A stretch of DNA of 27,967 nucleotides from an uncultured Bacilli bacterium (GCA_947626095.1 CANQQV010000019.1:1-27967), one strand, 5' to 3'. Shown: positions 1 to 12,127, numbered from the stretch's first letter. Program-made: numbers and translations. The notes: generated by a model not told the origin, from the sequence alone.

Positions 1-92
1 TGCTAATCCCATATATACAAGACCTGCATCATATGTGTTTGGAGCTTGTTCTTCTGGCTTAGCAGCAGGTTTCTTATTATCTTCTGCTTTTG
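1..92 (-). repeat. 3' constant anchor block, copy 1 (partial)
   Basis: Matches the corresponding parts of 2187-2326, 4393-4532 and 5725-5864. Confidence 0.95.
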
Positions 93-1156
93 ATGGATTT
101 ACTGTTACTACACCATTTTCAGTTGTAGTTGTTGCATTTCCAACTAGATCTTTTTCTGCTTCAGCAGCTTTTGTTATTCTAGTTCCTTCTTTTACATCTC
201 CAACGATTGAACCAGTGAATTTTCCACCTGTAATCATATTTTTATGATTTGCTAAGAATTCTTCATTACGAATATGTAATGCTGGAAGTTGATTTCCTTT
301 AGCATCCTTACCAGATGTAATTTTTCCATCAGTAATTTTGTATGTTCCTTTTGATCCATCGAACCATACAGCTTCATTATTTTCACTTGCTGATGTAATT
401 TCTCCACCTGCAATTGTTAAAGCATTTGTGTATTTTCCTGTTGGATCTTTAACATATATAGCACTATTATTACCAGTAGCTTTTAAAGTACCTGCATTAA
501 CATTTAAAGTACCGTTTACTAACTTAAATACATATGCATTTGAAGTATAAGTACCACCATTAACATTAACTACTGATTTACCAGCATCTAATACTATTAA
601 AGCATTTGATGCGGTTAAAGCTGTTGCTTTAACATTAGCATTTAAGTTGATAGTTAAATTTTCATCTTTATTTGGTTCACATGCAACGATTTCATTAGCT
701 ATTTCCCATTTACCATTAATATTAACTACAGTTTGTTCTGTTGCATCATCAACTTTAACAACTGAATTAGTATTTAATGCGCCTTTAACAGTAACGTCAC
801 TTGCAAAAGTTAATGTTGATGCTTTGTCTTTTGAGTTTACTACAAAGTTTTGAGTATGTGTTGTAGTATCAATAGTACCATTTGTAATAGTCACATTAGC
901 ACCTTCAACTTTTAATATACCACCAGTACCCATTGTTAAAGTTTGTTCATTTAAGTTAATTGTTACATTTCTGTTAATTACTGTTGTAGTAGTAACATTA
1001 AATGTTTTTCCATCTAGTAATACTATTTCTGCAGTTTCATCTTCTTTAACGTCAGCAATAGCATCTTTTAAGTTATTAAAGCATTGATATTGTCTACTAC
1101 CTGAATAATCTACATAATACCAATGTCCACTACATTCGTCATGTTTAACTGGTTCT

Positions 1157-1188
1157 GCACTAACAGTAACTACTGATAGTAATATTGC
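1157..1188 (-). repeat. 32-bp 5' cassette-junction repeat, copy 1 (identity to copy 4 extends to 1208)
   Basis: gcactaacagtaactactgatagtaatattgc on + strand; identical at 3427, 5660, 6944; encodes AILLSVVTVS(A) on minus. Confidence 0.97.
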
Positions 1189-1208
1189 ACATAGTGCAAA
1201 TTAAGGAT

Positions 1209-1231
1209 AAAAAAAGAAGGATTAAACTTCT
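1209..1231 (-). terminator. Weak intrinsic terminator after Rpn-like gene 1
   Basis: Minus strand AGAAG-tttaatc-CTTCT followed by a T run, overlapping the stop codon. Confidence 0.45.
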
Positions 1232-2120
1232 ATAATATCGGCATACTAAGTCGTTTGGATAATTCTTCTTTAGTCATACCACTTGATAGTAATTTATTTA
1301 TGATATTATTTCTTTCTTCTTTTATACCGGCTTGACGTCCTTCTTTAATACCTGCCTGACGCCCGTCTTTAAGTCCTTGTCTACGAGTCTTTCTTAATAC
1401 TCTCTTTTCTATATTTCTAGCTAATTCCTCTTTTACACCTTCAAGGTACAAATTATAATCATATGTTGGAAGTTCGTCATCTAATGCTATTTCTTTTATT
1501 TTTTCCATTACTCTCACTCTCTTTCTATTATCTTTAGCATATGAAGCCATCTCTTTATAACTTCTAGTAGCAAACATAGCAAAATCTTTATATATATCAT
1601 TATCATTAGTATAACATAGCTTTTTAAATGCTGGTAAAAAAATATTAATAATTTCTATATCTTCAATTGTATCATTTAATTTTGTATCTCTTAATTTATA
1701 TCTACTCATTGGACATTTCATATTACCACGATAATAAAAACCATTAAAATTTATTTGAATAACTCGAATTTTACCTTCATATTTATTTATAACGTTTCTT
1801 TTATACATACCACCAGCTATTTTATATAAATAACTATTATTTTTATTATTAGTAATTTTTAAATTAATCGGATTTAACTCGATATTAATTTTAGTTTGTT
1901 TATCAGGTGACTCTAATAGGATATCTACCCTACTTGATATATCATTTACTCTATCTATTGGAATCTCATTCATTTTAAAAGAATAATTACTAATATCTAT
2001 ATCAACAATATATAATATTAAATTTCTAAAATAATCTTTAATAAGTTGGTCATCACTTTGCCACAATGTTTTAAATACAATATCCTGCATTAAGGATATA
2101 AATTTTAATTCTTTTCTCAA
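1230..2120 (-). CDS. Rpn family (PD-(D/E)XK nuclease/'transposase'-like) protein 1
   Basis: LMQDIVFKTLW N-terminal motif, RVDILL...INIELN catalytic-type motif, IQINF strand, C-terminal GxxxG repeats (GRQAGIKE x2) and short HTH-like tail; TTG start with GGGAGG RBS. Confidence 0.8.
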   Translation of the reverse strand: MRKELKFISLMQDIVFKTLWQSDDQLIKDYFRNLILYIVDIDISNYSFKMNEIPIDRVNDISSRVDILLESPDKQTKINIELNPINLKITNNKNNSYLYKIAGGMYKRNVINKYEGKIRVIQINFNGFYYRGNMKCPMSRYKLRDTKLNDTIEDIEIINIFLPAFKKLCYTNDNDIYKDFAMFATRSYKEMASYAKDNRKRVRVMEKIKEIALDDELPTYDYNLYLEGVKEELARNIEKRVLRKTRRQGLKDGRQAGIKEGRQAGIKEERNNIINKLLSSGMTKEELSKRLSMPIL

Positions 2121-2142
2121 GGAAATAATCCTCCCTTCACTT

Positions 2143-2174
2143 TAATTATTCGCGATTGAAAGCCTATTTCCTTT
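2143..2174 (-). promoter_or_regulatory. SigH-like promoter motif upstream of Rpn-like gene 1
   Basis: Minus: AAAGGAAAT-11 nt-CGCGAATAATTA, resembling the SigH consensus AGGAWW-N11/12-GAAT; recurs at 4349-4380 and 20945-20976. Confidence 0.6.
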
Positions 2175-2186
2175 ATTTTTTATTTA

Positions 2187-2326
2187 ATTTCTTAATTTTC
2201 TAACAGAAACAACACTTGCACCGATTGCACTTAATGCTAATCCCATATATACAAGACCTGCATCATATGTGTTTGGGGCTTGTTCGTCTGGTTTAGCAGC
2301 TGGTTTCTTATCGTCTTCTGCTTTTG
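2187..2326 (-). repeat. 3' constant anchor block, copy 2 (140 bp)
   Basis: 2187-2276 (90 bp) is identical to the copies at 4393 and 5725, including silent sites; the remainder has a few substitutions. Confidence 0.95.
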
Positions 2327-3426
2327 TTGAAACTACTACTTTGTATGGATCTTCAGTTTTAACTGTGTAACCTTCAGCTACTAATTGATTAGTAACATCA
2401 ACAGTACCACCTTCAGTATCAACAACTTTAGCAATAATATTAGTTAAATATTTACCACCTGTTAAGATACCTTTAATTGCTGGAACAACAGTTGTTACAC
2501 CATCTTCTGTTTTAGTGAATGCGCCATCTAACTCAATTGCTGCTTTCATATTTTTACTGCTTTCAAAAGTACCATCAGTAATTTTATAAACAGCTTTTGT
2601 ATTGTTTGAATATATTGCATATGCAGTTTCACTAGCAATAGTTCCACCATTAACAGTTAATTTAGTCGCATCAGTTGTACCATTAACTATAATAGCGCCA
2701 TTACCTTTTGCGTATAAATCACCACTTGTTACAACTAATTCAGCACCATTAACTCTAGCAACAGCTTGATCACTATTAATAGTAGCACCATTAACAGTAA
2801 CAACAACGCCACCAGTTAGTGTCATTGCTTCTGCAGCTGTAGTATAAGTACCATTAACAGATACTGTTGATGCAGGATTTATTTTTGTAGCAGCAGCTGT
2901 TGAAGACATTACAGATACAATTGATGATACATTATATTTACCATTTAATGTAGCTTTAGCACCAGCTTTTGCTGTATATAAAACTTGTGCATTTGGTAAA
3001 TTGAAATCAGCACCTGTAACATCAGCAGTTCCTTCATTTACAATTATTTGATGAGTATAAGCTCCTGTCATTTTTAAGTTTTGTAAACTTAAACTACCAC
3101 CAACATTAACATAGAATGGTTGATAACTACTATCGTTAACAACTAATTCACCGTTTTTAACAGTTAACTTAGCATCTTTAGCAACATTATATTGACCAGA
3201 ACTAGCTGTAAGTTTATGACCATTCAAATCAATAGTTAATGTTTTAGTAATGCTTTTAACATCTCCTAAACTAGCATCAGCATATAGTGTTATTGTACCG
3301 CCGTCATTATAAGCAGCTGTCCAAGCATTACCTTGTAATAAGAAACCTCTGTCGCCAACTTTAGCAGTACAATCATTAGTTTCTTTAGCTGTTTTACCAT
3401 CAGCTGGTAATTCACATTCACCGGCT

Positions 3427-3458
3427 GCACTAACAGTAACTACTGATAGTAATATTGC
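3427..3458 (-). repeat. 32-bp 5' cassette-junction repeat, copy 2
   Basis: Exact match to the other three copies; similarity stops abruptly at 3459. Confidence 0.97.
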
Positions 3459-3467
3459 TTTAATATT

Positions 3468-4331
3468 TTATAGTATTGGCATACTAAGTCTTTTAGATAA
3501 CTCTTCTTTAGTCATACCACTTGATAATAATTTATTTATAATATTTGTTCTTTCTTCTTTTATTCCTTCTTTAATGCCTTCTTCACGACCATCTTCTCTT
3601 ATACTCTTTTCAACTGCTTTACGATAAGCTATACGCATAGCTTCTGTTTCATAATCTTCATTATCAATAATTCTTTTTTCTAAATCTTTCATTACACTTT
3701 CCCTTTCTTTATTACCTTGAATATATTTTTTCATTTCTTTAAAACTTTGAGCTGTAAACATTTTATAGTCTAATAGTTCTTCTGCATTTTTATTATAGCA
3801 TATATTAGATAATATTGGTAAATAAATATTAATTATTCTTATATTTTTTAAACTTCTATTACCTATTTTATTTTGAATACTATATTCATCAATATCTAAT
3901 TTGTTATATTCTTTATCAGCAAAAGCATTAATATTTACTTGGTCGATTAAGATATCTTTAGCATAGAAACTATCGCCTCGATTATAGAAATTACCAGCTA
4001 TTTTATGTAAATAAAATACATTACGTTTTAACCAATATCTTTTATCAACTCTATTTATTTCAATATTTAGTTTTCTTGATTTATCTTTAGATACTAAAAG
4101 AAAATCTAGTCGATTATCTTGACTGATAACTTTATCAGCAACTATTTCATTGTAATATAAATTAAAATTTCTAATATCATAACCGACAATTCGCTTAATA
4201 ACACGATTAATAAATTTTATAGTATTTGGTCCACCATTAAGCCATAAATATTTTAATACACGATCTTCAGTAAGAGGATGAAAATCATAGAACTCTAGTT
4301 TTATTTCTTTGGGAATATTTTGATTATTCAT
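3468..4331 (-). CDS. Rpn family (PD-(D/E)XK nuclease/'transposase'-like) protein 2
   Basis: PLTEDRVLKYLW, RLDFLL...LNIEIN, DGREEGIKEGIKEE repeats; same C-terminal tail as protein 1; ATG with GGGAGG RBS. Confidence 0.8.
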   Translation of the reverse strand: MNNQNIPKEIKLEFYDFHPLTEDRVLKYLWLNGGPNTIKFINRVIKRIVGYDIRNFNLYYNEIVADKVISQDNRLDFLLVSKDKSRKLNIEINRVDKRYWLKRNVFYLHKIAGNFYNRGDSFYAKDILIDQVNINAFADKEYNKLDIDEYSIQNKIGNRSLKNIRIINIYLPILSNICYNKNAEELLDYKMFTAQSFKEMKKYIQGNKERESVMKDLEKRIIDNEDYETEAMRIAYRKAVEKSIREDGREEGIKEGIKEERTNIINKLLSSGMTKEELSKRLSMPIL

Positions 4332-4348
4332 TAATTACCTCCCTACTT

Positions 4349-4380
4349 TAATTATTCGTGATTGAAAGCTTATTTCCTTT
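4349..4380 (-). promoter_or_regulatory. SigH-like promoter motif upstream of Rpn-like gene 2
   Basis: Minus: AAAGGAAAT-11 nt-CACGAATAATTA; near-identical to 2143-2174. Confidence 0.6.
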
Positions 4381-4392
4381 ATTTTTTATTAA

Positions 4393-4532
4393 ATTTCTTA
4401 ATTTTCTAACAGAAACAACACTTGCACCGATTGCACTTAATGCTAATCCCATATATACAAGACCTGCATCATATGTGTTTGGAGCTTGTTCTTCTGGTTT
4501 AGCAGCTGGTTTCTTATTATCTTCTGCTTTTG
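4393..4532 (-). repeat. 3' constant anchor block, copy 3 (140 bp)
   Basis: Direct comparison with the other copies. Confidence 0.95.
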
Positions 4533-5659
4533 TTGAAACTACTACTTTGTAGTTACCTTCTTCTTTTACTGTGTAACCTTCTGCAACTAAATCATCAGTA
4601 GCATCATAATTTGCACCACTTACAGTATTTTTTATAACACCGATAATATTATTCAAATATCTACCACCAGTTATAATATCTTTTTGATCAGCAATTAGTT
4701 TACCAGTTTTTACATCAAAGAATGCAGTATCTAGACTAATAGCAGCAGCATCTTTATCACCTTTAGCTTCATAAGTACCACCAGCTAAAACATATTTAGC
4801 TTTTGCATTTCTAAGTAATAAAGCATGTCTTCCAGTAAGTGTAGAAACTAATGTACCACCATTAACAGTTAATGAAGCAGTATCAGCAGTACCTTCAGTT
4901 TGTACTGGAGCACCATTTGAAGTTAAAGTACCACCATTAATAGTAACTTTAGCATTATATAACATAATTACATTAACAGCAGGAGCACCTTCTCCTGGTT
5001 TAGTATTAAATGTACCGCCATTGATTGTAACATTCATACCTTTGTCAGCTTGAATAGCAGTAGCAGTAGTAGTATATGTACCACCATTAACTATTACTTT
5101 TGCATCAGCTTCATTATAACCTTTATTATAACTACTTGCAGGACGAACAACAGTAGTAGCATCTACTTTACCATTTAATGTAACTGTAGAATTAGGTAAA
5201 ACATCTATAGCTACATGACCAGTACTATCAACTGTAGTATTAGCACCAACTGTTAATTCACCAGCAACAGTTGCTAAACCATTAGTAGTAGCAGTAACGT
5301 TTGTAGCATTTAAAACAAATTTACCACCTTTATTAACTGTAAACGCTTTTGCAACAACTACATTTTTAGCATTAATAGTTAATGAACCACCATCAGCAAC
5401 AGTTAATACACTAGAAGCTCCACCTAAAGTTAATTTAGCATCACCATACATATTGATAGTTACGTTCTTATCGATAGTTACATTTGAACCTGTTGCTATT
5501 GTTGCATCGTCATAGAATGTAACATTCTTACCATTAGTAAGTGCATCATTATATGCATCAAGAGCGCTACCATAACCTTCACCATCGATAGATGCATGAC
5601 ATGCATTATGTACTGTAAGATCATCAGGACTAAGCGTACAACCTGGTTGGGTATTAGCT

Positions 5660-5691
5660 GCACTAACAGTAACTACTGATAGTAATATTGC
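5660..5691 (-). repeat. 32-bp 5' cassette-junction repeat, copy 3
   Basis: Exact match; shares 5 further bases (acata) with copies 1 and 4. Confidence 0.97.
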
Positions 5692-5724
5692 ACATACTTT
5701 GTTTTCTTAAATCAATAATTAGTT

Positions 5725-5864
5725 ATTTCTTAATTTTCTAACAGAAACAACACTTGCACCGATTGCACTTAATGCTAATCCCATATATACAAGACCTGCA
5801 TCATATGTGTTTGGAGCTTGTTCTTCTGGCTTAGCAGCAGGTTTCTTATCGTTTTCTGCTTTTG
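5725..5864 (-). repeat. 3' constant anchor block, copy 4 (140 bp)
   Basis: Direct comparison with the other copies. Confidence 0.95.
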
Positions 5865-6943
5865 ATGGATTTACTGTTACTACACCATTTTCAGTAGTTG
5901 TTGTTGCGTTACCAACTAAAATTGCTGTTGCAGCTGCAGATCTTGTCCAAGTATCTGTTGCAGCATCAGTTTGAACATCACCAACTATTGCACCAGTAAA
6001 TGATCCACCACTTATCATATTAGCATGATTTGCTAAGAATGTTTGTGAAGCAATGTATAATGCTGGTAGTTGTTTTTTATCTTTTTTACCAGAAGTAAAT
6101 GTTCCACCAGTAATACTATAAGTACCAGTTTCTTCACCAGTTCCACTACCAAAATATAAAGCATATTTGCCATCAGTTTTTGTAGTAATATTACCAGCTG
6201 AAATATTTAATGTAGTAGTTAGGTTTTGACCAGGTTTTTCAACAACTATAGCATGTCCACCATTAGCTGTTAAATCTCCACCTTTAACATTTAAAGTACC
6301 ATTCTTAACCATAAAGACTGATTTATTAGATGTATAAGTACCACCTAATACATTAACTGTTGAAGTACCAGCATCAACTGCTACTAAATAATCAGATTGT
6401 AGGTCAGTAGCTTTAACATTAGCATTTAAATTTACAGTTAATTTTTCATCTAATCCATTACTACATGCAACAATTTCATGTTTAACTGTCCAAGTACCAT
6501 TAATATTAACAACGGTTGTATTAGATGCATTAGCAATTTGAATAGCTGATGTAGCATAGTAAGTTGCATTAACTGTAACGTCACTAGCAATTGTCAATGT
6601 AGATGCTTTTTCAGATGAATCAACAACGATATGTCCTTGATTAGCAATTAAATCTAGTTTACCATTCTTAATAGTAACATTAGCACCTTTTACTGTAACA
6701 TTTTGAGTACCAGTTACAGGTGTTGTAAGTTTATGACCATTTAAATTGATAGTTATATCTTTAGTAATATTTACTGGTCCACCTATAACCATATCTTTTA
6801 AAAGAACTAATTCACCATTTTCATTTTCTTCTAATGAATTTAATGCATTAGTAACATTATTACCACAAGTATATGTTCCGTTTCCATGATCTAAATACAA
6901 ATAGTTATTTGAACATCTACTAGGGCTGTCTACAGTACTTTCA

Positions 6944-6975
6944 GCACTAACAGTAACTACTGATAGTAATATTGC
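6944..6975 (-). repeat. 32-bp 5' cassette-junction repeat, copy 4 (52-bp identity with copy 1, to 6995)
   Basis: Exact match; the extension contains the palindrome TTGCAC-ata-GTGCAA. Confidence 0.97.
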
Positions 6976-6996
6976 ACATAGTGCAAATTAAGGATT

Positions 6997-7023
6997 AAAA
7001 AAAAGTAATGTTTCCATTACTTT
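6997..7023 (-). terminator. Intrinsic terminator at the upstream boundary of the array
   Basis: AAAGTAATG-4 nt-CATTACTTT hairpin with T8 run on minus, overlapping the oxidoreductase stop. Confidence 0.7.
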
Positions 7024-8437: not shown

Positions 8438-8466
8438 AAAAAAAAGACTATTCTACTAGTCTTTTC
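8438..8466 (-). terminator. Intrinsic terminator after giant sigma gene
   Basis: AAAAGACTA-6 nt-TAGTCTTTT hairpin with T run on minus. Confidence 0.6.
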
Positions 8467-11400
8467 GATACAATAATCGTTCTTGAGGTGATAATTTTAG
8501 TTGAGTATCTAGAGTATCTAAGAGTTTATATAAATGATTGAGTTCTTTACCAGTTAGAAATTCTCTTTCACTGATATCATATATGGCCATTAATTCGTTT
8601 TTCGTACTTTTCTTTAAATCTTGACCATATTTTTTTAATAAAGCTATGACATCTTCTCTAGTTGCGGTACTAAAATCAAAGGCATTAGGATAGATATCTT
8701 TAATTAAATCATTAATTATATAGTATGATAAGTCTTCTTTTAAGCCATTGATATTACGACTACTAGTTATTTTATTAAAGTATCTTAAATAATATAGTTT
8801 ATGTTGATAAGACATATTTTGATGATTTCTTAAGTAATAAGCATAGATATCTTCAAATGAGAAAGTGGTTTCTTTAACGATACCATCTCTTAGTTTACAG
8901 ACACTGAGCATTAGATTACTAATAACTCGATTAATAGCGGATGTCTTTAAATCAAGGTTTAATTCCTTAATAATGGCTGGAACACTTTTGCGTTCGTCAC
9001 CATCCATACCAAATGCTAAGTTAAAGATTTTAATGGCTAAATCTAAATCACCATAAAATGGTAAATCAGGATTTTTAATAGCTTCTTCATAGTAAGCAAA
9101 ATCAAAAACTTTAGTATTATTTAAGTTATTCATAAGTTCATATAAGTTAATTTTAATTCTTTCCATAATACTAACCATTTGATGGAAGTTAACATGACAT
9201 TTAGTAGCTATTTCTTCATATGATAAACCGTTTTTATAGAAATCTTCTAATTTAATTCGATCACTAGGAGCAAAGTACTTTAATAATGGGATAATATCAG
9301 TATCATAATCGATTTTACCGTCAATTTCTTTATTTAAATATTTATAGATAGTAACGATAGCTCGTTGATATCTTCTTTTAAGACTACCTTTATTATCATT
9401 AAAGATACTAGTTAGTTCGTTAAGAGTTTTATATGGATAACCTTTAAGTTCAAATAGGTAACAGATTATTTCTTTTTCTTTAGGACTTATTGGTAGATGT
9501 TTATCATCTAATAGTTTATCTAGTTCTTGACGAGGAATATAAAGTAAATCAGGTTTTAAGATTCCTGCTTTACGGCTTTTAATTTTTCTAATAATGGTCA
9601 TATATTTATGCCAGTAACTTGCTTTAGTAAGTTTATATTTAGCTATTAGGCCATTATAATCTAGTTTAAGACCGGAAGGATTATAGCGATTAGTAAGACC
9701 TAAGTAGAAACTAATTAATTCTTTTTCAGAATCGTTTAAGACTGATTCACTTGAATGTTTATCGACTTCTTCTTTAATATCATTATCATCAATCGTAATA
9801 TCTTTAATTAAATAGCTTTCATATAAATTATTAAAATGTTTTAAAGCACTTTTAATAATATTAATATCTAGATTTAAGTAATCAGCAATATCTTCAGGCA
9901 TCATGTTTTCGACATAACGGCAGATAATTATTTTAGCTTCTTCTTTAGTTAGATTATTTTGATAATTTTTTAAGAATTCTTTTAATTTAGTTTTAGGAAT
10001 ATTTGAGGTAGTAGTAAGACCAAAACGGTAATTATCCATTTTTCGAATAGCATCGGTAATAATATTGGATATTCTAGTTTTATTTAAACCAGTTTTAGTA
10101 CTTATTTCATCGTATGATAAACCTTGAATAATAAACATATCAAGAATTTCTCTTGTTTCTTTAACAAAGTAATACTTAGGATTAGTAATATATTTTTTAT
10201 ATATATTTGGTTTAATTTCCACACGATAATTAGCTAGACCACTATATAGTTTAATGGCATAATCACGAGCTTCACGACATAAATCATGAGCTTTGATGTA
10301 GTCTAGTTTTAAAGTTTCAGCTATTTCACTGATAGAATAGACTTTGCCATTAACACCATAGTACATATCTAAAACTTGAATCCTTGAGGCACTTAGTTTA
10401 TCAGGATATTTCTTTTTTAATTGTTCGTACATTTCTTTAGTAAAAGTATTATCAAAGAATCTTAAGATATGATAGTAACTTCTTTCTAAACGATCAATTA
10501 AGAAATAGTAACGATAATATAAAGTTGAATCAGGATATTGGCTTTTAAATACACTTTTATCTTTTTGACCAAAGTAATATGTTTCTAAGAATAGTTGTTG
10601 CTCATCATTGAATTCGTTTTTTATTCTTAAATACTCTTGATATAACTTATCTTTAGGAACATTCATATCTTGATGTTTAAAACCAAATAAAGTTATATTG
10701 ATATCGATTAATAATTCTTCTTCCTTAAGACCTTTTCTAACTTTTTGGCCATAATATTTAGCGAGTAATCTTTCTTCATCAACTGTTAGATTATAGTCAA
10801 TGCTTTTAAAGAGATTTAAGATATCATCTAAACTCATACTACTATACTTAGCGGTTAGTTTTTGATAATCAATTTCTTTGGCACGTTTTGGAATATCAAT
10901 ATCAAAGATTTTAGTACCATAACTTTTAATAGTAGATAAACGATATTTTTGATATTTTTCTTGATTTTTAAATTTAGTTTGAAGTTTATTTCTTAAGCTT
11001 TGGTAAGCACTTTTTATATCGGCAACACTAACATTTAATTCATAAGCTAATTCTTCTAAGTTATAATTATATTTACTAAAGACTTTTAAATATAAGATTC
11101 TTTCTTCTAAGTATTCTAAATCAGCTTGAAGATATAAGTATTCAATTATTTTATCAGGATGTAACGGTTCTTTTTTTAAACGATTAACTCTTAGTCCTTC
11201 TCTTTTAGCAATATTATTATATGTACTAGTCATTTTAGTACTATTGGGACTCATATATATTTTTAACTTTTTTAGAGCTTTAGATTCTAATTGACGAATT
11301 CTTTCTCTAGTTAGATTAAAATAGGAAGCTGTTTGTTCTAAAGTATAGTCTTCCCCACTTAAAATACGATAATAAATAATAAAATAATGTAAAGGCGATA

Positions 11401-12088
11401 ATACTTCTTTTAAAGTTACTAATAAAGTATCATTGACCATGCGATTTAAGACATCGTCATAACCGGTTTCAGTACTAGGAATAAAATTGCCTAATTCAGT
11501 TTCAGAATCATCATCAACTGTTTGATCGATACTAACTGGAGTTTGATTGATTGCATCTCTGATGTTTTTTAAAGTTTCTTTACTGATATTAAGAGCAGTA
11601 CATATTTCTTCATCGCTTAATTTCTTACCACAAGAATTATTATCATTTATTAACTTTTTATAACGACGGATGGCTTCGATAAGATGAACTGGTTTTCTAA
11701 TGGTTGAATCTTTATCAGCAATAGCTCTAGTAATACCTTGTTTAATCCACCATACGGCATAAGTAGAAAAAGCACCCTTTTCCGGGTCATAATCTTCAAC
11801 GGCACGCATTAAACCCATATTACCTTCTTGAATAATATCTAAGATATCTAAATGTTTAATAATATTACGATAATGATTAGCCACACTAACTACTAATCTT
11901 AAATTACTATTAATTAGTAATTCACGGGCTTTATAATCACCAGTTTGATACTTTATTGCTAGTTCTTTTTGATCTTCACTAGATAGAATTGGATATTTAG
12001 AGATGTCGCGCATATATAATTTAAAGGCATTATCACTAAAGGTATTTACTAGTTCTTCGTCGGTTAATATTGTGATATCTTCATCCAT
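8456..12088 (-). CDS. Giant sigma-70 family protein: RpoD-like regions 1.2-4 plus ~930-aa tail of repeated region-4-like HTH units
   Basis: LYMRDISKYPILS (1.2), LINSNLRLVVSVA..DIIQEGNMGLMRAVEDYDP..FSTYAVWWIKQGITRAIAD (2), PVSID (3), YTLEQTASYFNLTRERIRQLESKALKKL (4). ATG at 12088 has AGGTG RBS (track start 12115). Confidence 0.85.
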   Translation of the reverse strand: MDEDITILTDEELVNTFSDNAFKLYMRDISKYPILSSEDQKELAIKYQTGDYKARELLINSNLRLVVSVANHYRNIIKHLDILDIIQEGNMGLMRAVEDYDPEKGAFSTYAVWWIKQGITRAIADKDSTIRKPVHLIEAIRRYKKLINDNNSCGKKLSDEEICTALNISKETLKNIRDAINQTPVSIDQTVDDDSETELGNFIPSTETGYDDVLNRMVNDTLLVTLKEVLSPLHYFIIYYRILSGEDYTLEQTASYFNLTRERIRQLESKALKKLKIYMSPNSTKMTSTYNNIAKREGLRVNRLKKEPLHPDKIIEYLYLQADLEYLEERILYLKVFSKYNYNLEELAYELNVSVADIKSAYQSLRNKLQTKFKNQEKYQKYRLSTIKSYGTKIFDIDIPKRAKEIDYQKLTAKYSSMSLDDILNLFKSIDYNLTVDEERLLAKYYGQKVRKGLKEEELLIDINITLFGFKHQDMNVPKDKLYQEYLRIKNEFNDEQQLFLETYYFGQKDKSVFKSQYPDSTLYYRYYFLIDRLERSYYHILRFFDNTFTKEMYEQLKKKYPDKLSASRIQVLDMYYGVNGKVYSISEIAETLKLDYIKAHDLCREARDYAIKLYSGLANYRVEIKPNIYKKYITNPKYYFVKETREILDMFIIQGLSYDEISTKTGLNKTRISNIITDAIRKMDNYRFGLTTTSNIPKTKLKEFLKNYQNNLTKEEAKIIICRYVENMMPEDIADYLNLDINIIKSALKHFNNLYESYLIKDITIDDNDIKEEVDKHSSESVLNDSEKELISFYLGLTNRYNPSGLKLDYNGLIAKYKLTKASYWHKYMTIIRKIKSRKAGILKPDLLYIPRQELDKLLDDKHLPISPKEKEIICYLFELKGYPYKTLNELTSIFNDNKGSLKRRYQRAIVTIYKYLNKEIDGKIDYDTDIIPLLKYFAPSDRIKLEDFYKNGLSYEEIATKCHVNFHQMVSIMERIKINLYELMNNLNNTKVFDFAYYEEAIKNPDLPFYGDLDLAIKIFNLAFGMDGDERKSVPAIIKELNLDLKTSAINRVISNLMLSVCKLRDGIVKETTFSFEDIYAYYLRNHQNMSYQHKLYYLRYFNKITSSRNINGLKEDLSYYIINDLIKDIYPNAFDFSTATREDVIALLKKYGQDLKKSTKNELMAIYDISEREFLTGKELNHLYKLLDTLDTQLKLSPQERLLYRKD

Positions 12089-12127
12089 AAAAAACACCTG
12101 ATTCTTATTATACAATAAAAAAAAGAA

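Follow-up and report, generated by a model that had tools for sequence, protein, structure and literature searches.

A candidate silent cassette archive with one expression site for a beta-helix surface protein in an uncultured gut bacterium of the Bacilli

The 27,967-nucleotide stretch of DNA analysed here (the window) is contig C19 of the source assembly of an uncultured Bacilli bacterium (CANQQV010000019.1 in GCA_947626095.1) and carries four surface-protein cassettes that have no start codon. They belong to a set of sixteen copies in the genome, one of which is preceded by a promoter, a ribosome binding site (RBS) and an ATG. The most probable reading, at about 70%, is a silent archive with a single expression site, similar to vlhA or pilE, in which homologous gene conversion would exchange the cassettes. 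Support for the architecture is good, whereas the dynamics are proposed. The source genome (G000) is a metagenome-assembled genome (MAG) of 1.6 Mb in 34 contigs, 91% complete and with 7.9% contamination, and the run records give rabbit gut and gut metagenomes as habitat.

All cassette features of the window lie on the minus strand. Four stop-to-stop frames of 400 to 452 codons were found (Table 1), one of which is cut at its 3' end by the window edge; each is preceded by an in-frame TAA, and neither an ATG nor a Shine-Dalgarno sequence stands ahead of any of them (4/4). This confirms an earlier reading of the window (the sequence-only reading), in which four same-strand open frames without start, RBS or signal-peptide n-region had been described. 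Translation with table 4 (TGA = Trp) left the frames unchanged and did not extend them. The 32-mer at the 5' side of each frame, hereafter the box, occurs in the window in four copies with 0 mismatches (mean 0.00 in 100 shuffles), and a constant block of about 146 bp, from CAAAAGCAGA to the stop codon, closes the cassettes on the 3' side. The claim of an identical 32-bp repeat and an anchor block of about 140 bp was therefore upheld. The block of cassette A (1-92) is interrupted at the contig end by the repeat, and in cassette C the normal stop after RKLRN is lost. Cassette D starts 30 nucleotides (nt) past the stop codon of a gene for a flavin adenine dinucleotide (FAD)-dependent oxidoreductase, directly behind the terminator of that gene, which leaves no room for a promoter there. 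Ahead of the box of cassette B, the in-frame stop at a distance of 9 nt is the TAA of an Rpn-like open reading frame (ORF). Two such ORFs lie between the cassettes; these and the lost stop of cassette C had been overlooked before.

A search of the whole genome for the 32-mer, as the sequence-only reading had proposed, returned 16 exact copies on 8 contigs and 0 for the reversed control pattern, and one of the 16 belongs to a complete signal peptide. For each copy the 120 nt upstream were read. Fifteen of the 16, including the four in the window, are start-less. Some of these come directly after a terminator or after the stop codon of an Rpn-like gene; others follow on the preceding cassette, either at its end or where it is truncated. 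The remaining copy (C21:43-74, minus strand) has a promoter, an RBS, an ATG and the signal-peptide head MKNLKLFVFALC. Its promoter, TTGACA-17-TATACT, agrees with the consensus at 11 of 12 positions; among 26 promoter-like sites in 5.4 kb it ranks first, the number of such sites in that stretch not being above that in shuffles. It is followed by a leader of 65 nt, by the RBS AAGGGAGAGGA and by the ATG that opens the reading MKNLKLFVFALC-AILLSVVTVSA. The first 12 codons of the signal peptide are present only at this expression site, and the box represents signal-peptide codons 13-23. Scanned in six frames for MK.[ILMV]K[LM]F[VAI]F, the genome gave two matches, the expression site on C21 and a distinct complete paralog on C2. 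The expectation of further silent copies elsewhere and of exactly one with promoter, RBS, ATG and M-K..FALC was thus borne out. As had also been foreseen, gene callers mis-annotate the cassettes with internal starts, which is true of every predicted family protein in the source genome.

Upstream of the promoter, C21 carries in this order three silent cassettes, an Rpn-like gene, orf439, orf259, dtd and relA. At its 3' end, the expression locus is represented solely by the start of contig C12, which begins with an anchor end, a TAA and a hairpin with T-run, followed by hisS-aspS (read by eye). Contig ends in the source assembly overlap by exactly 77 nt. Positions 1-77 of C21, comprising the expression site, its box and 42 nt of body, are identical to C21:3029-3105, where a silent cassette begins at a distance of 3 kb upstream, so that the expressed copy has a twin among the donors. 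Both junctions of the same body, with the promoter and at the silent position, were assembled, as expected of a duplicative (copy-and-keep) event; this comparison covers the 77 visible nt, and the sample might be a mixed population. C21 continues for 42 nt beyond the box before it ends, from which, given how such assemblers work, a single variant appears to dominate in the sample; had another body been joined to the promoter at appreciable frequency, the contig should have broken off at the box itself.

Several further observations concern the surroundings of this site. The leader (locus L027 on C21, ~160-121, minus strand; also L039 of the related genome G005) holds AAGGAG, 6 nt, TTG and a seven-codon mini-ORF, MFKSKQF, with its stop; the mini-ORF ends 17 nt ahead of the main ATG, is identical in both genomes and may encode a regulatory leader peptide. 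Between the last silent C21 cassette and the promoter (L027 ~590-612, minus strand) lies a decayed remnant of a box, reading ..TGTACAATATTATAAT.., preceded by the truncated-anchor junction GGTCTTGTATAGARGTATATATTAATAT. The same junction joins two cassettes upstream, which suggests that the C21 array grew by unequal crossing-over. An Rfam scan of the expression-site region gave no credible match, and the inverted repeats found in it were AT-rich ones only. On C2, between two silent cassettes and upstream of the complete paralog MKKIKLFVFTICAILISVIGVNA, a run of nine G (C2:2897-2905) stands between TTGACA and a TAGTAT/TATATT hexamer. Runs of at least eight G or C number seven in the 1.6-Mb genome, and by its sequence this one resembles a phase switch that acts by strand slippage in the spacer of a promoter.

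The silent donors are constrained. Their 15 frames amount to 6410 codons with 0 stops, whereas the other two frames contain one stop per 8.3 codons and shuffled cassettes a mean of 30-41 stops each. The bodies diverge strongly, as had been stated from the window: between the 15 full cassettes found genome-wide, protein identity is 22-83%. Measured on five cassette pairs, the synonymous divergence (dS) of the bodies is 0.50-0.71 and the ratio of nonsynonymous to synonymous divergence (dN/dS) 0.26-0.62; over the first 11 codons dS falls to 0, and over the last 55 to 0.05-0.21. Open frames, dN/dS and the collapse of dS at the ends together indicate that the bodies are kept as a working protein and that, for the ends, identity is maintained in the DNA itself. 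Donors retain the exact 32-bp box and 95-146 bp of the 3' anchor block, the latter being 95-100% identical among them, and they decay outside this homology: of the 12 visible 3' ends, five are canonical, one is a residue short and six are damaged (two truncated at the same anchor point, one fused in frame to the next cassette and three without a stop). Related bodies show patchy identity with exact runs of 30-117 nt, so mosaics are possible as well.

The body encoded by the cassettes is, according to structure prediction, a right-handed parallel beta-helix, a fold of surface proteins such as PfbA, the pertactin and Vag8 passengers and SRRP. The AlphaFold (AF2) model of cassette D (predicted local distance difference test, pLDDT, 86.5) consists of a beta-solenoid at residues 20-377, a disordered linker and a helix at 401-420. 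With VIA-align it was matched to the Vag8 passenger (7akv_G; Z 23.2, root-mean-square deviation (rmsd) 4.3, 297 residues aligned) and to the pneumococcal adhesin PfbA (4mr0_B; Z 22.0, rmsd 3.2, 299 aligned), with pertactin, tailspikes and polysaccharide lyases next in rank; no Foldseek match to the same model went below E 0.2. Pfam assigned 0 families to the cassettes. A profile of the family retrieved 6000 proteins at E <=1e-3 and 263 at <=1e-30, many of the matches being giants of 2000-7600 residues that repeat the module. The C-terminal tail is composed of APNTYDAG, 18 hydrophobic residues and RKLRNN. It resembles a sorting signal, and the protein may be anchored to the cell wall; the tail could also be a plain membrane anchor. 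Sortase-domain matches in the source genome number five, and the NCBIfam LPXTG-anchor models gave no match to the cassettes at E <=1. At C28:12752-14609, a tandem pair of surface-protein genes whose tail differs from this one (PGPNTGAFASYALLAAG) is convergent to another Rpn-like gene at the contig end.

The expression locus was compared with two sister-species genomes. In G005, the expression site adjoins the same block (orf439-orf255-dtd-relA), and in G010 a single contig carries relA-dtd-orf262-orf457, four complete paralogs and hisS-aspS. The synteny common to G000, G005 and G010 marks the expression locus as a fixed chromosomal site. Each of the four tandem paralogs in G010 (C1:8057-14123, L059) has its own signal peptide and AP.T.D.G anchor, and this arrangement is likely the ancestral state of the expression locus. 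G005 has eight boxes of a different sequence, seven of them start-less and reading ..PLGLLTMSLVTVSAA... The single started box, at a contig end, has a TTGACT-17-TATAAT promoter and reads MKNLKLFVFALCLLTMSLVTVFADD. The same layout with one start in G005 makes chance or decay unlikely. The 5' untranslated region (5'UTR) of G005 has 48 identical nt in common with that of G000, and, compared codon by codon (counted by hand), the boxes of G005 and G000 are about 58% identical. Since the box differs between the sister species and the leader is conserved, the box appears to co-evolve within a genome as homology does, unlike a recognition site.

As a marker, the 5'UTR 48-mer was found in 2 of 27 genomes of the genus, with one copy in each, and in none of 400 other genomes of the family, only 2 of which are from the genus; in public genome contigs it had one match, which is G005, and in public metagenome contigs it had none. 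Among public proteins, 25 have the G005-type N-terminus. Of these, 24 start at an internal Met or in junk, most of them ending in ..LVGNATV without an anchor, and one (P0016) has a full start. AAETGNCE, with which the body of P0016 opens, corresponds to a G005 copy that has no start (90% identity in 21 residues, at a contig end) and differs from the cassette expressed in G005 itself; beyond these 21 residues, nothing of the P0016 body was found in G005. This is a hint, from sequence comparison, that different cassettes may occupy the expression site in different samples. A protein-guided scan of metagenome contigs gave only three distant loci of 30-37% identity, which are uninformative. In gut metagenome runs X1, X8 and X9, the sequences matching L027:61-180 belong to the expression site of a relative with the same leader, whose box, of the CAVLLSVVTVNA type, encodes VLLSVVTVNA. 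Three full-length proteins (P0003, P0004 and P0036) have the VLLSVVTVNA-type N-terminus of this relative and one anchor in common with three different bodies. A further set (P0005, P0008, P0053 and P0063) has full starts, MKKTLMSIV..AMVLMVGGVKA, beside proteins that start inside that signal peptide (MVLMVGGVKAAD.., MVGGVKAAD..), and may represent a further lineage with the same pattern.

In the proposed mechanism, the expression locus between relA-dtd-orf259-orf439 and hisS-aspS would supply promoter, 5'UTR, RBS, ATG and 12 signal-peptide codons. In a switch, the locus would receive a copy of a donor's beta-helix body of about 350 codons, the donor staying in place; the recombination would be homologous, RecA-type and non-reciprocal, with the two constant blocks as anchors. 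The product would be a secreted right-handed beta-helix protein held at the surface via its sorting-signal-like tail, and such a switch might serve the escape from host immunoglobulin A (IgA) or phages, or alter the binding specificity. Between gene conversion and site-specific recombination, we infer the former: homologous non-reciprocal recombination is favoured because the arrays are direct, the box co-evolves, the donor twin is kept, recA is present (C24:8057-8842) and no recombinase gene is adjacent to the cassette arrays that were checked. The recA finding shows the presence of the gene, not a dependence of the cassette system on RecA. The identity of all 16 boxes may mean that the 5' homology is near the minimal length for recombination, such that one mismatch would silence a donor.

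Several points weigh against this reading. Switching itself was not observed. For the strain in question the runs are available as contigs only, which break at the box, and the two runs with raw reads contain a relative whose reads diverge at the box, leaving the reference at position 73. In run X1, the depth is 6.8 on the cassette-start contig and 14.9 on the promoter contig, a gap that may reflect a strain mix. The assembly holds one dominant junction at the expression site, with 77 nt of the expressed copy visible, and the start of the cassette expressed in G005 has no second copy in that assembly. The homology on the 5' side is short (32-45 bp), and the source genome is a MAG with the contamination given above.

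Exchange at the box by a dedicated enzyme, either a tyrosine or serine recombinase or an Rpn-like nuclease acting in the manner of a vsa-type shufflon or an integron, would account for the identity of the box in 16 of 16 copies and for the TTGCAC-TAT-GTGCAA palindrome that abuts it at the expression site and at seven silent copies, to which a role might be ascribed from its sequence; it would also fit the position of five of seven Rpn-like genes directly 5' of a cassette and a genome with four tyrosine and three serine recombinases. Every array is, however, in direct orientation, so that reciprocal exchange would delete DNA, in C21 the promoter; no recombinase gene adjoins the C21 array, the matches being on other contigs or far from boxes; nine silent copies are without the full palindrome; and the G005 box has diverged to about 58% identity while the 5'UTR was conserved. 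This explanation is regarded as unlikely. Two specific forms of it were rejected: the 32-mer as the core site of a recombinase, in which only 5-bp dyads were seen by eye, and an inversion of the vsa/HvsR or shufflon type, given that the arrays are all direct and no recombinase is among the C21 neighbours.

A reading without any programmed system, in which tandem duplication of paralogs and unequal crossing-over left dead start-less copies around one working paralog, has little probability, although the orthologous G010 locus holds ordinary tandem paralogs, several silent copies are damaged at the 3' end or fused and switching was not observed. Dead copies would hardly show so long a stop-free sequence or the dN/dS values given above at a dS of 0.5-0.7, nor keep 32 bp perfect in all 16 copies while the bodies fall to 22% identity, and the layout of one started and many start-less copies recurs in a second species with its own box. 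Very improbable is an expression of each cassette in place, whether the TAA is read through, initiation is non-canonical or the cassette is coupled to the Rpn-like gene ahead of it. In the window, three of the four cassettes lie at most 45 nt behind a gene or cassette on the same strand, which makes co-transcription possible, and cassette B has an in-frame ATT after the TAA; yet no RBS stands ahead of any silent cassette, the remaining signal peptide is without an n-region, a terminator hairpin directly precedes cassette D, at least four different kinds of 5' junction occur and table 4 leaves the frames unextended. The silent archive with gene conversion into one expression site remains the preferred reading.

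The ORFs between the cassettes resemble the E. coli Rpn (YhgA-like) proteins in that they align along the entire TIGR01784 model; they differ in scoring below its cut-off (35-45 bits for the window ORFs, cut-off 52.1) and in a fold search that caught the C-terminal helix only (Z 5.4). Five matches to this model were obtained (E 6e-12 to 2e-3, best 45 bits), four of them along its full length, while Pfam (including PF04754) gave no match to the Rpn-like ORFs at E <=0.01. Of the seven Rpn-like copies in the genome, five end 0-45 nt ahead of a box. With regard to a PD-(D/E)XK core and its acidic catalytic residues, D76 and E91 are invariant in a 12-sequence alignment, and the structure model (pLDDT 70) has the element order alpha-beta-beta-beta-alpha-beta. 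As a marker of the system the Rpn-like genes were rejected, being present in 10 of 27 genomes of the genus, eight of which are without the 5'UTR marker. RpnA of E. coli is described as a nonspecific Mg-dependent endonuclease that raises RecA-independent recombination (PMC5350276), and in a preprint the Rpn proteins are interpreted as toxin-antitoxin systems directed against phages (10.1101/2023.05.02.539157). It is doubtful that the Rpn-like nuclease makes the break, or primes the template switch, with which cassette copying would start. If it did, this would be the first natural programmed role of the family, and the whole would be a nuclease-assisted cassette-replacement system derived from ordinary tandem paralogs in a gut-commensal lineage.

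Table 1. Features of the silent cassette region in the window (positions counted from its first letter)
Feature	Position	Strand	Description
Silent cassette D	5719..6987	-	422-codon open frame, no start codon
32-bp 5' box of cassette D	6944..6975	-	codons AILLSVVTVSA
TTGCAC-TAT-GTGCAA palindrome	6972..6986	-	5' edge of homology; also at expression site
3' constant block of cassette D	5719..5864	-	linker, APNTYDAG motif, hydrophobic stretch, RKLRNN, stop
Silent cassette C	4348..5706	-	452 codons; box 5660-5691; 3' block 4393-4532
Rpn-like ORF 2	3468..4331	-	287 residues, complete
Silent cassette B	2184..3467	-	427 codons; box 3427-3458; 3' block 2187-2326
Rpn-like ORF 1	1230..2120	-	296 residues, complete; directly 5' of cassette A
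Silent cassette A	1..1200	-	400 codons visible; box 1157-1188; palindrome 1185-1199
Terminator hairpin GTAATG-GAAA-CATTAC and T8 run	6997..7020	-	ends FAD-dependent oxidoreductase gene; read by eye

Outside the cassette region, the window encodes a 1219-residue protein of the sigma-70 family (8456..12115, minus strand) with regions 1.2, 2, 3 and 4 in its first 290 residues and a long tail with additional region-4-like helix-turn-helix matches.

The analysis describes the full architecture of a silent-cassette system in an uncultured rabbit-gut commensal and on a beta-helix adhesin-like protein. To our knowledge, silent-cassette variation is known almost only from pathogens, namely Neisseria, Borrelia, Treponema, Anaplasma and the mycoplasmas, and a search of the literature on RF39 or gut Firmicutes found no description of such a system. 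Its presence suggests that commensals are under the same antibody or phage pressure. Three comparable stages are available, tandem paralogs in G010, donors that keep the anchor in the source genome and donors without both ends in the G005 lineage, so that the origin of such systems can be compared directly between close relatives. A caution for annotation is that gene callers turn silent archives into apparently normal genes with internal starts.

Among the known systems, vsa of Mycoplasma pulmonis also consists of start-less surface genes, with a vrs box of about 34 bp in common with one expression site; there, site-specific inversion is carried out by HvsR, an adjacent tyrosine recombinase, at inverted sites, whereas the copies described here are direct within their arrays and no recombinase gene is adjacent. 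The host lineage (RF39) and the mycoplasmas both presumably belong to the class Bacilli in the GTDB sense. In Neisseria pilin variation, donors give short segments and a G-quadruplex beside pilE is required; in the 640 nt upstream of the expression site no G-rich element was seen by eye, and here whole bodies of 350 codons would be exchangeable. Similar to the present case, pilE/pilS has one expressed locus and promoterless, 5'-truncated silent copies. Pilin variation is described as high-frequency gene conversion (PMC4023411). Borrelia vlsE likewise combines a single expression site with contiguous arrays of silent cassettes, from which transfer is reported to be unidirectional; these cassettes are about 90% identical to the central region of vlsE and recombine in segments (PMC11499132). 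With bodies that are 22-83% identical, exchange of whole cassettes between the end blocks is more likely here than exchange of vls-like segments. The closest analogue is vlhA of Mycoplasma synoviae, where, according to PMC2825196, 5'-less pseudogenes, some of them in tandem, are recruited under one promoter and 5' gene end, in a process termed gene conversion or site-specific recombination. Its constant 5' part covers 223-224 residues (PMC2825196), compared to 23 codons here. The two proteins are unrelated, the vlhA product being a lipoprotein haemagglutinin and the present one a beta-helix with a sorting-signal-like tail; moreover, the present donors are spread over at least eight contigs, in an uncultured commensal of the gut whose gene set is of the cell-wall type.

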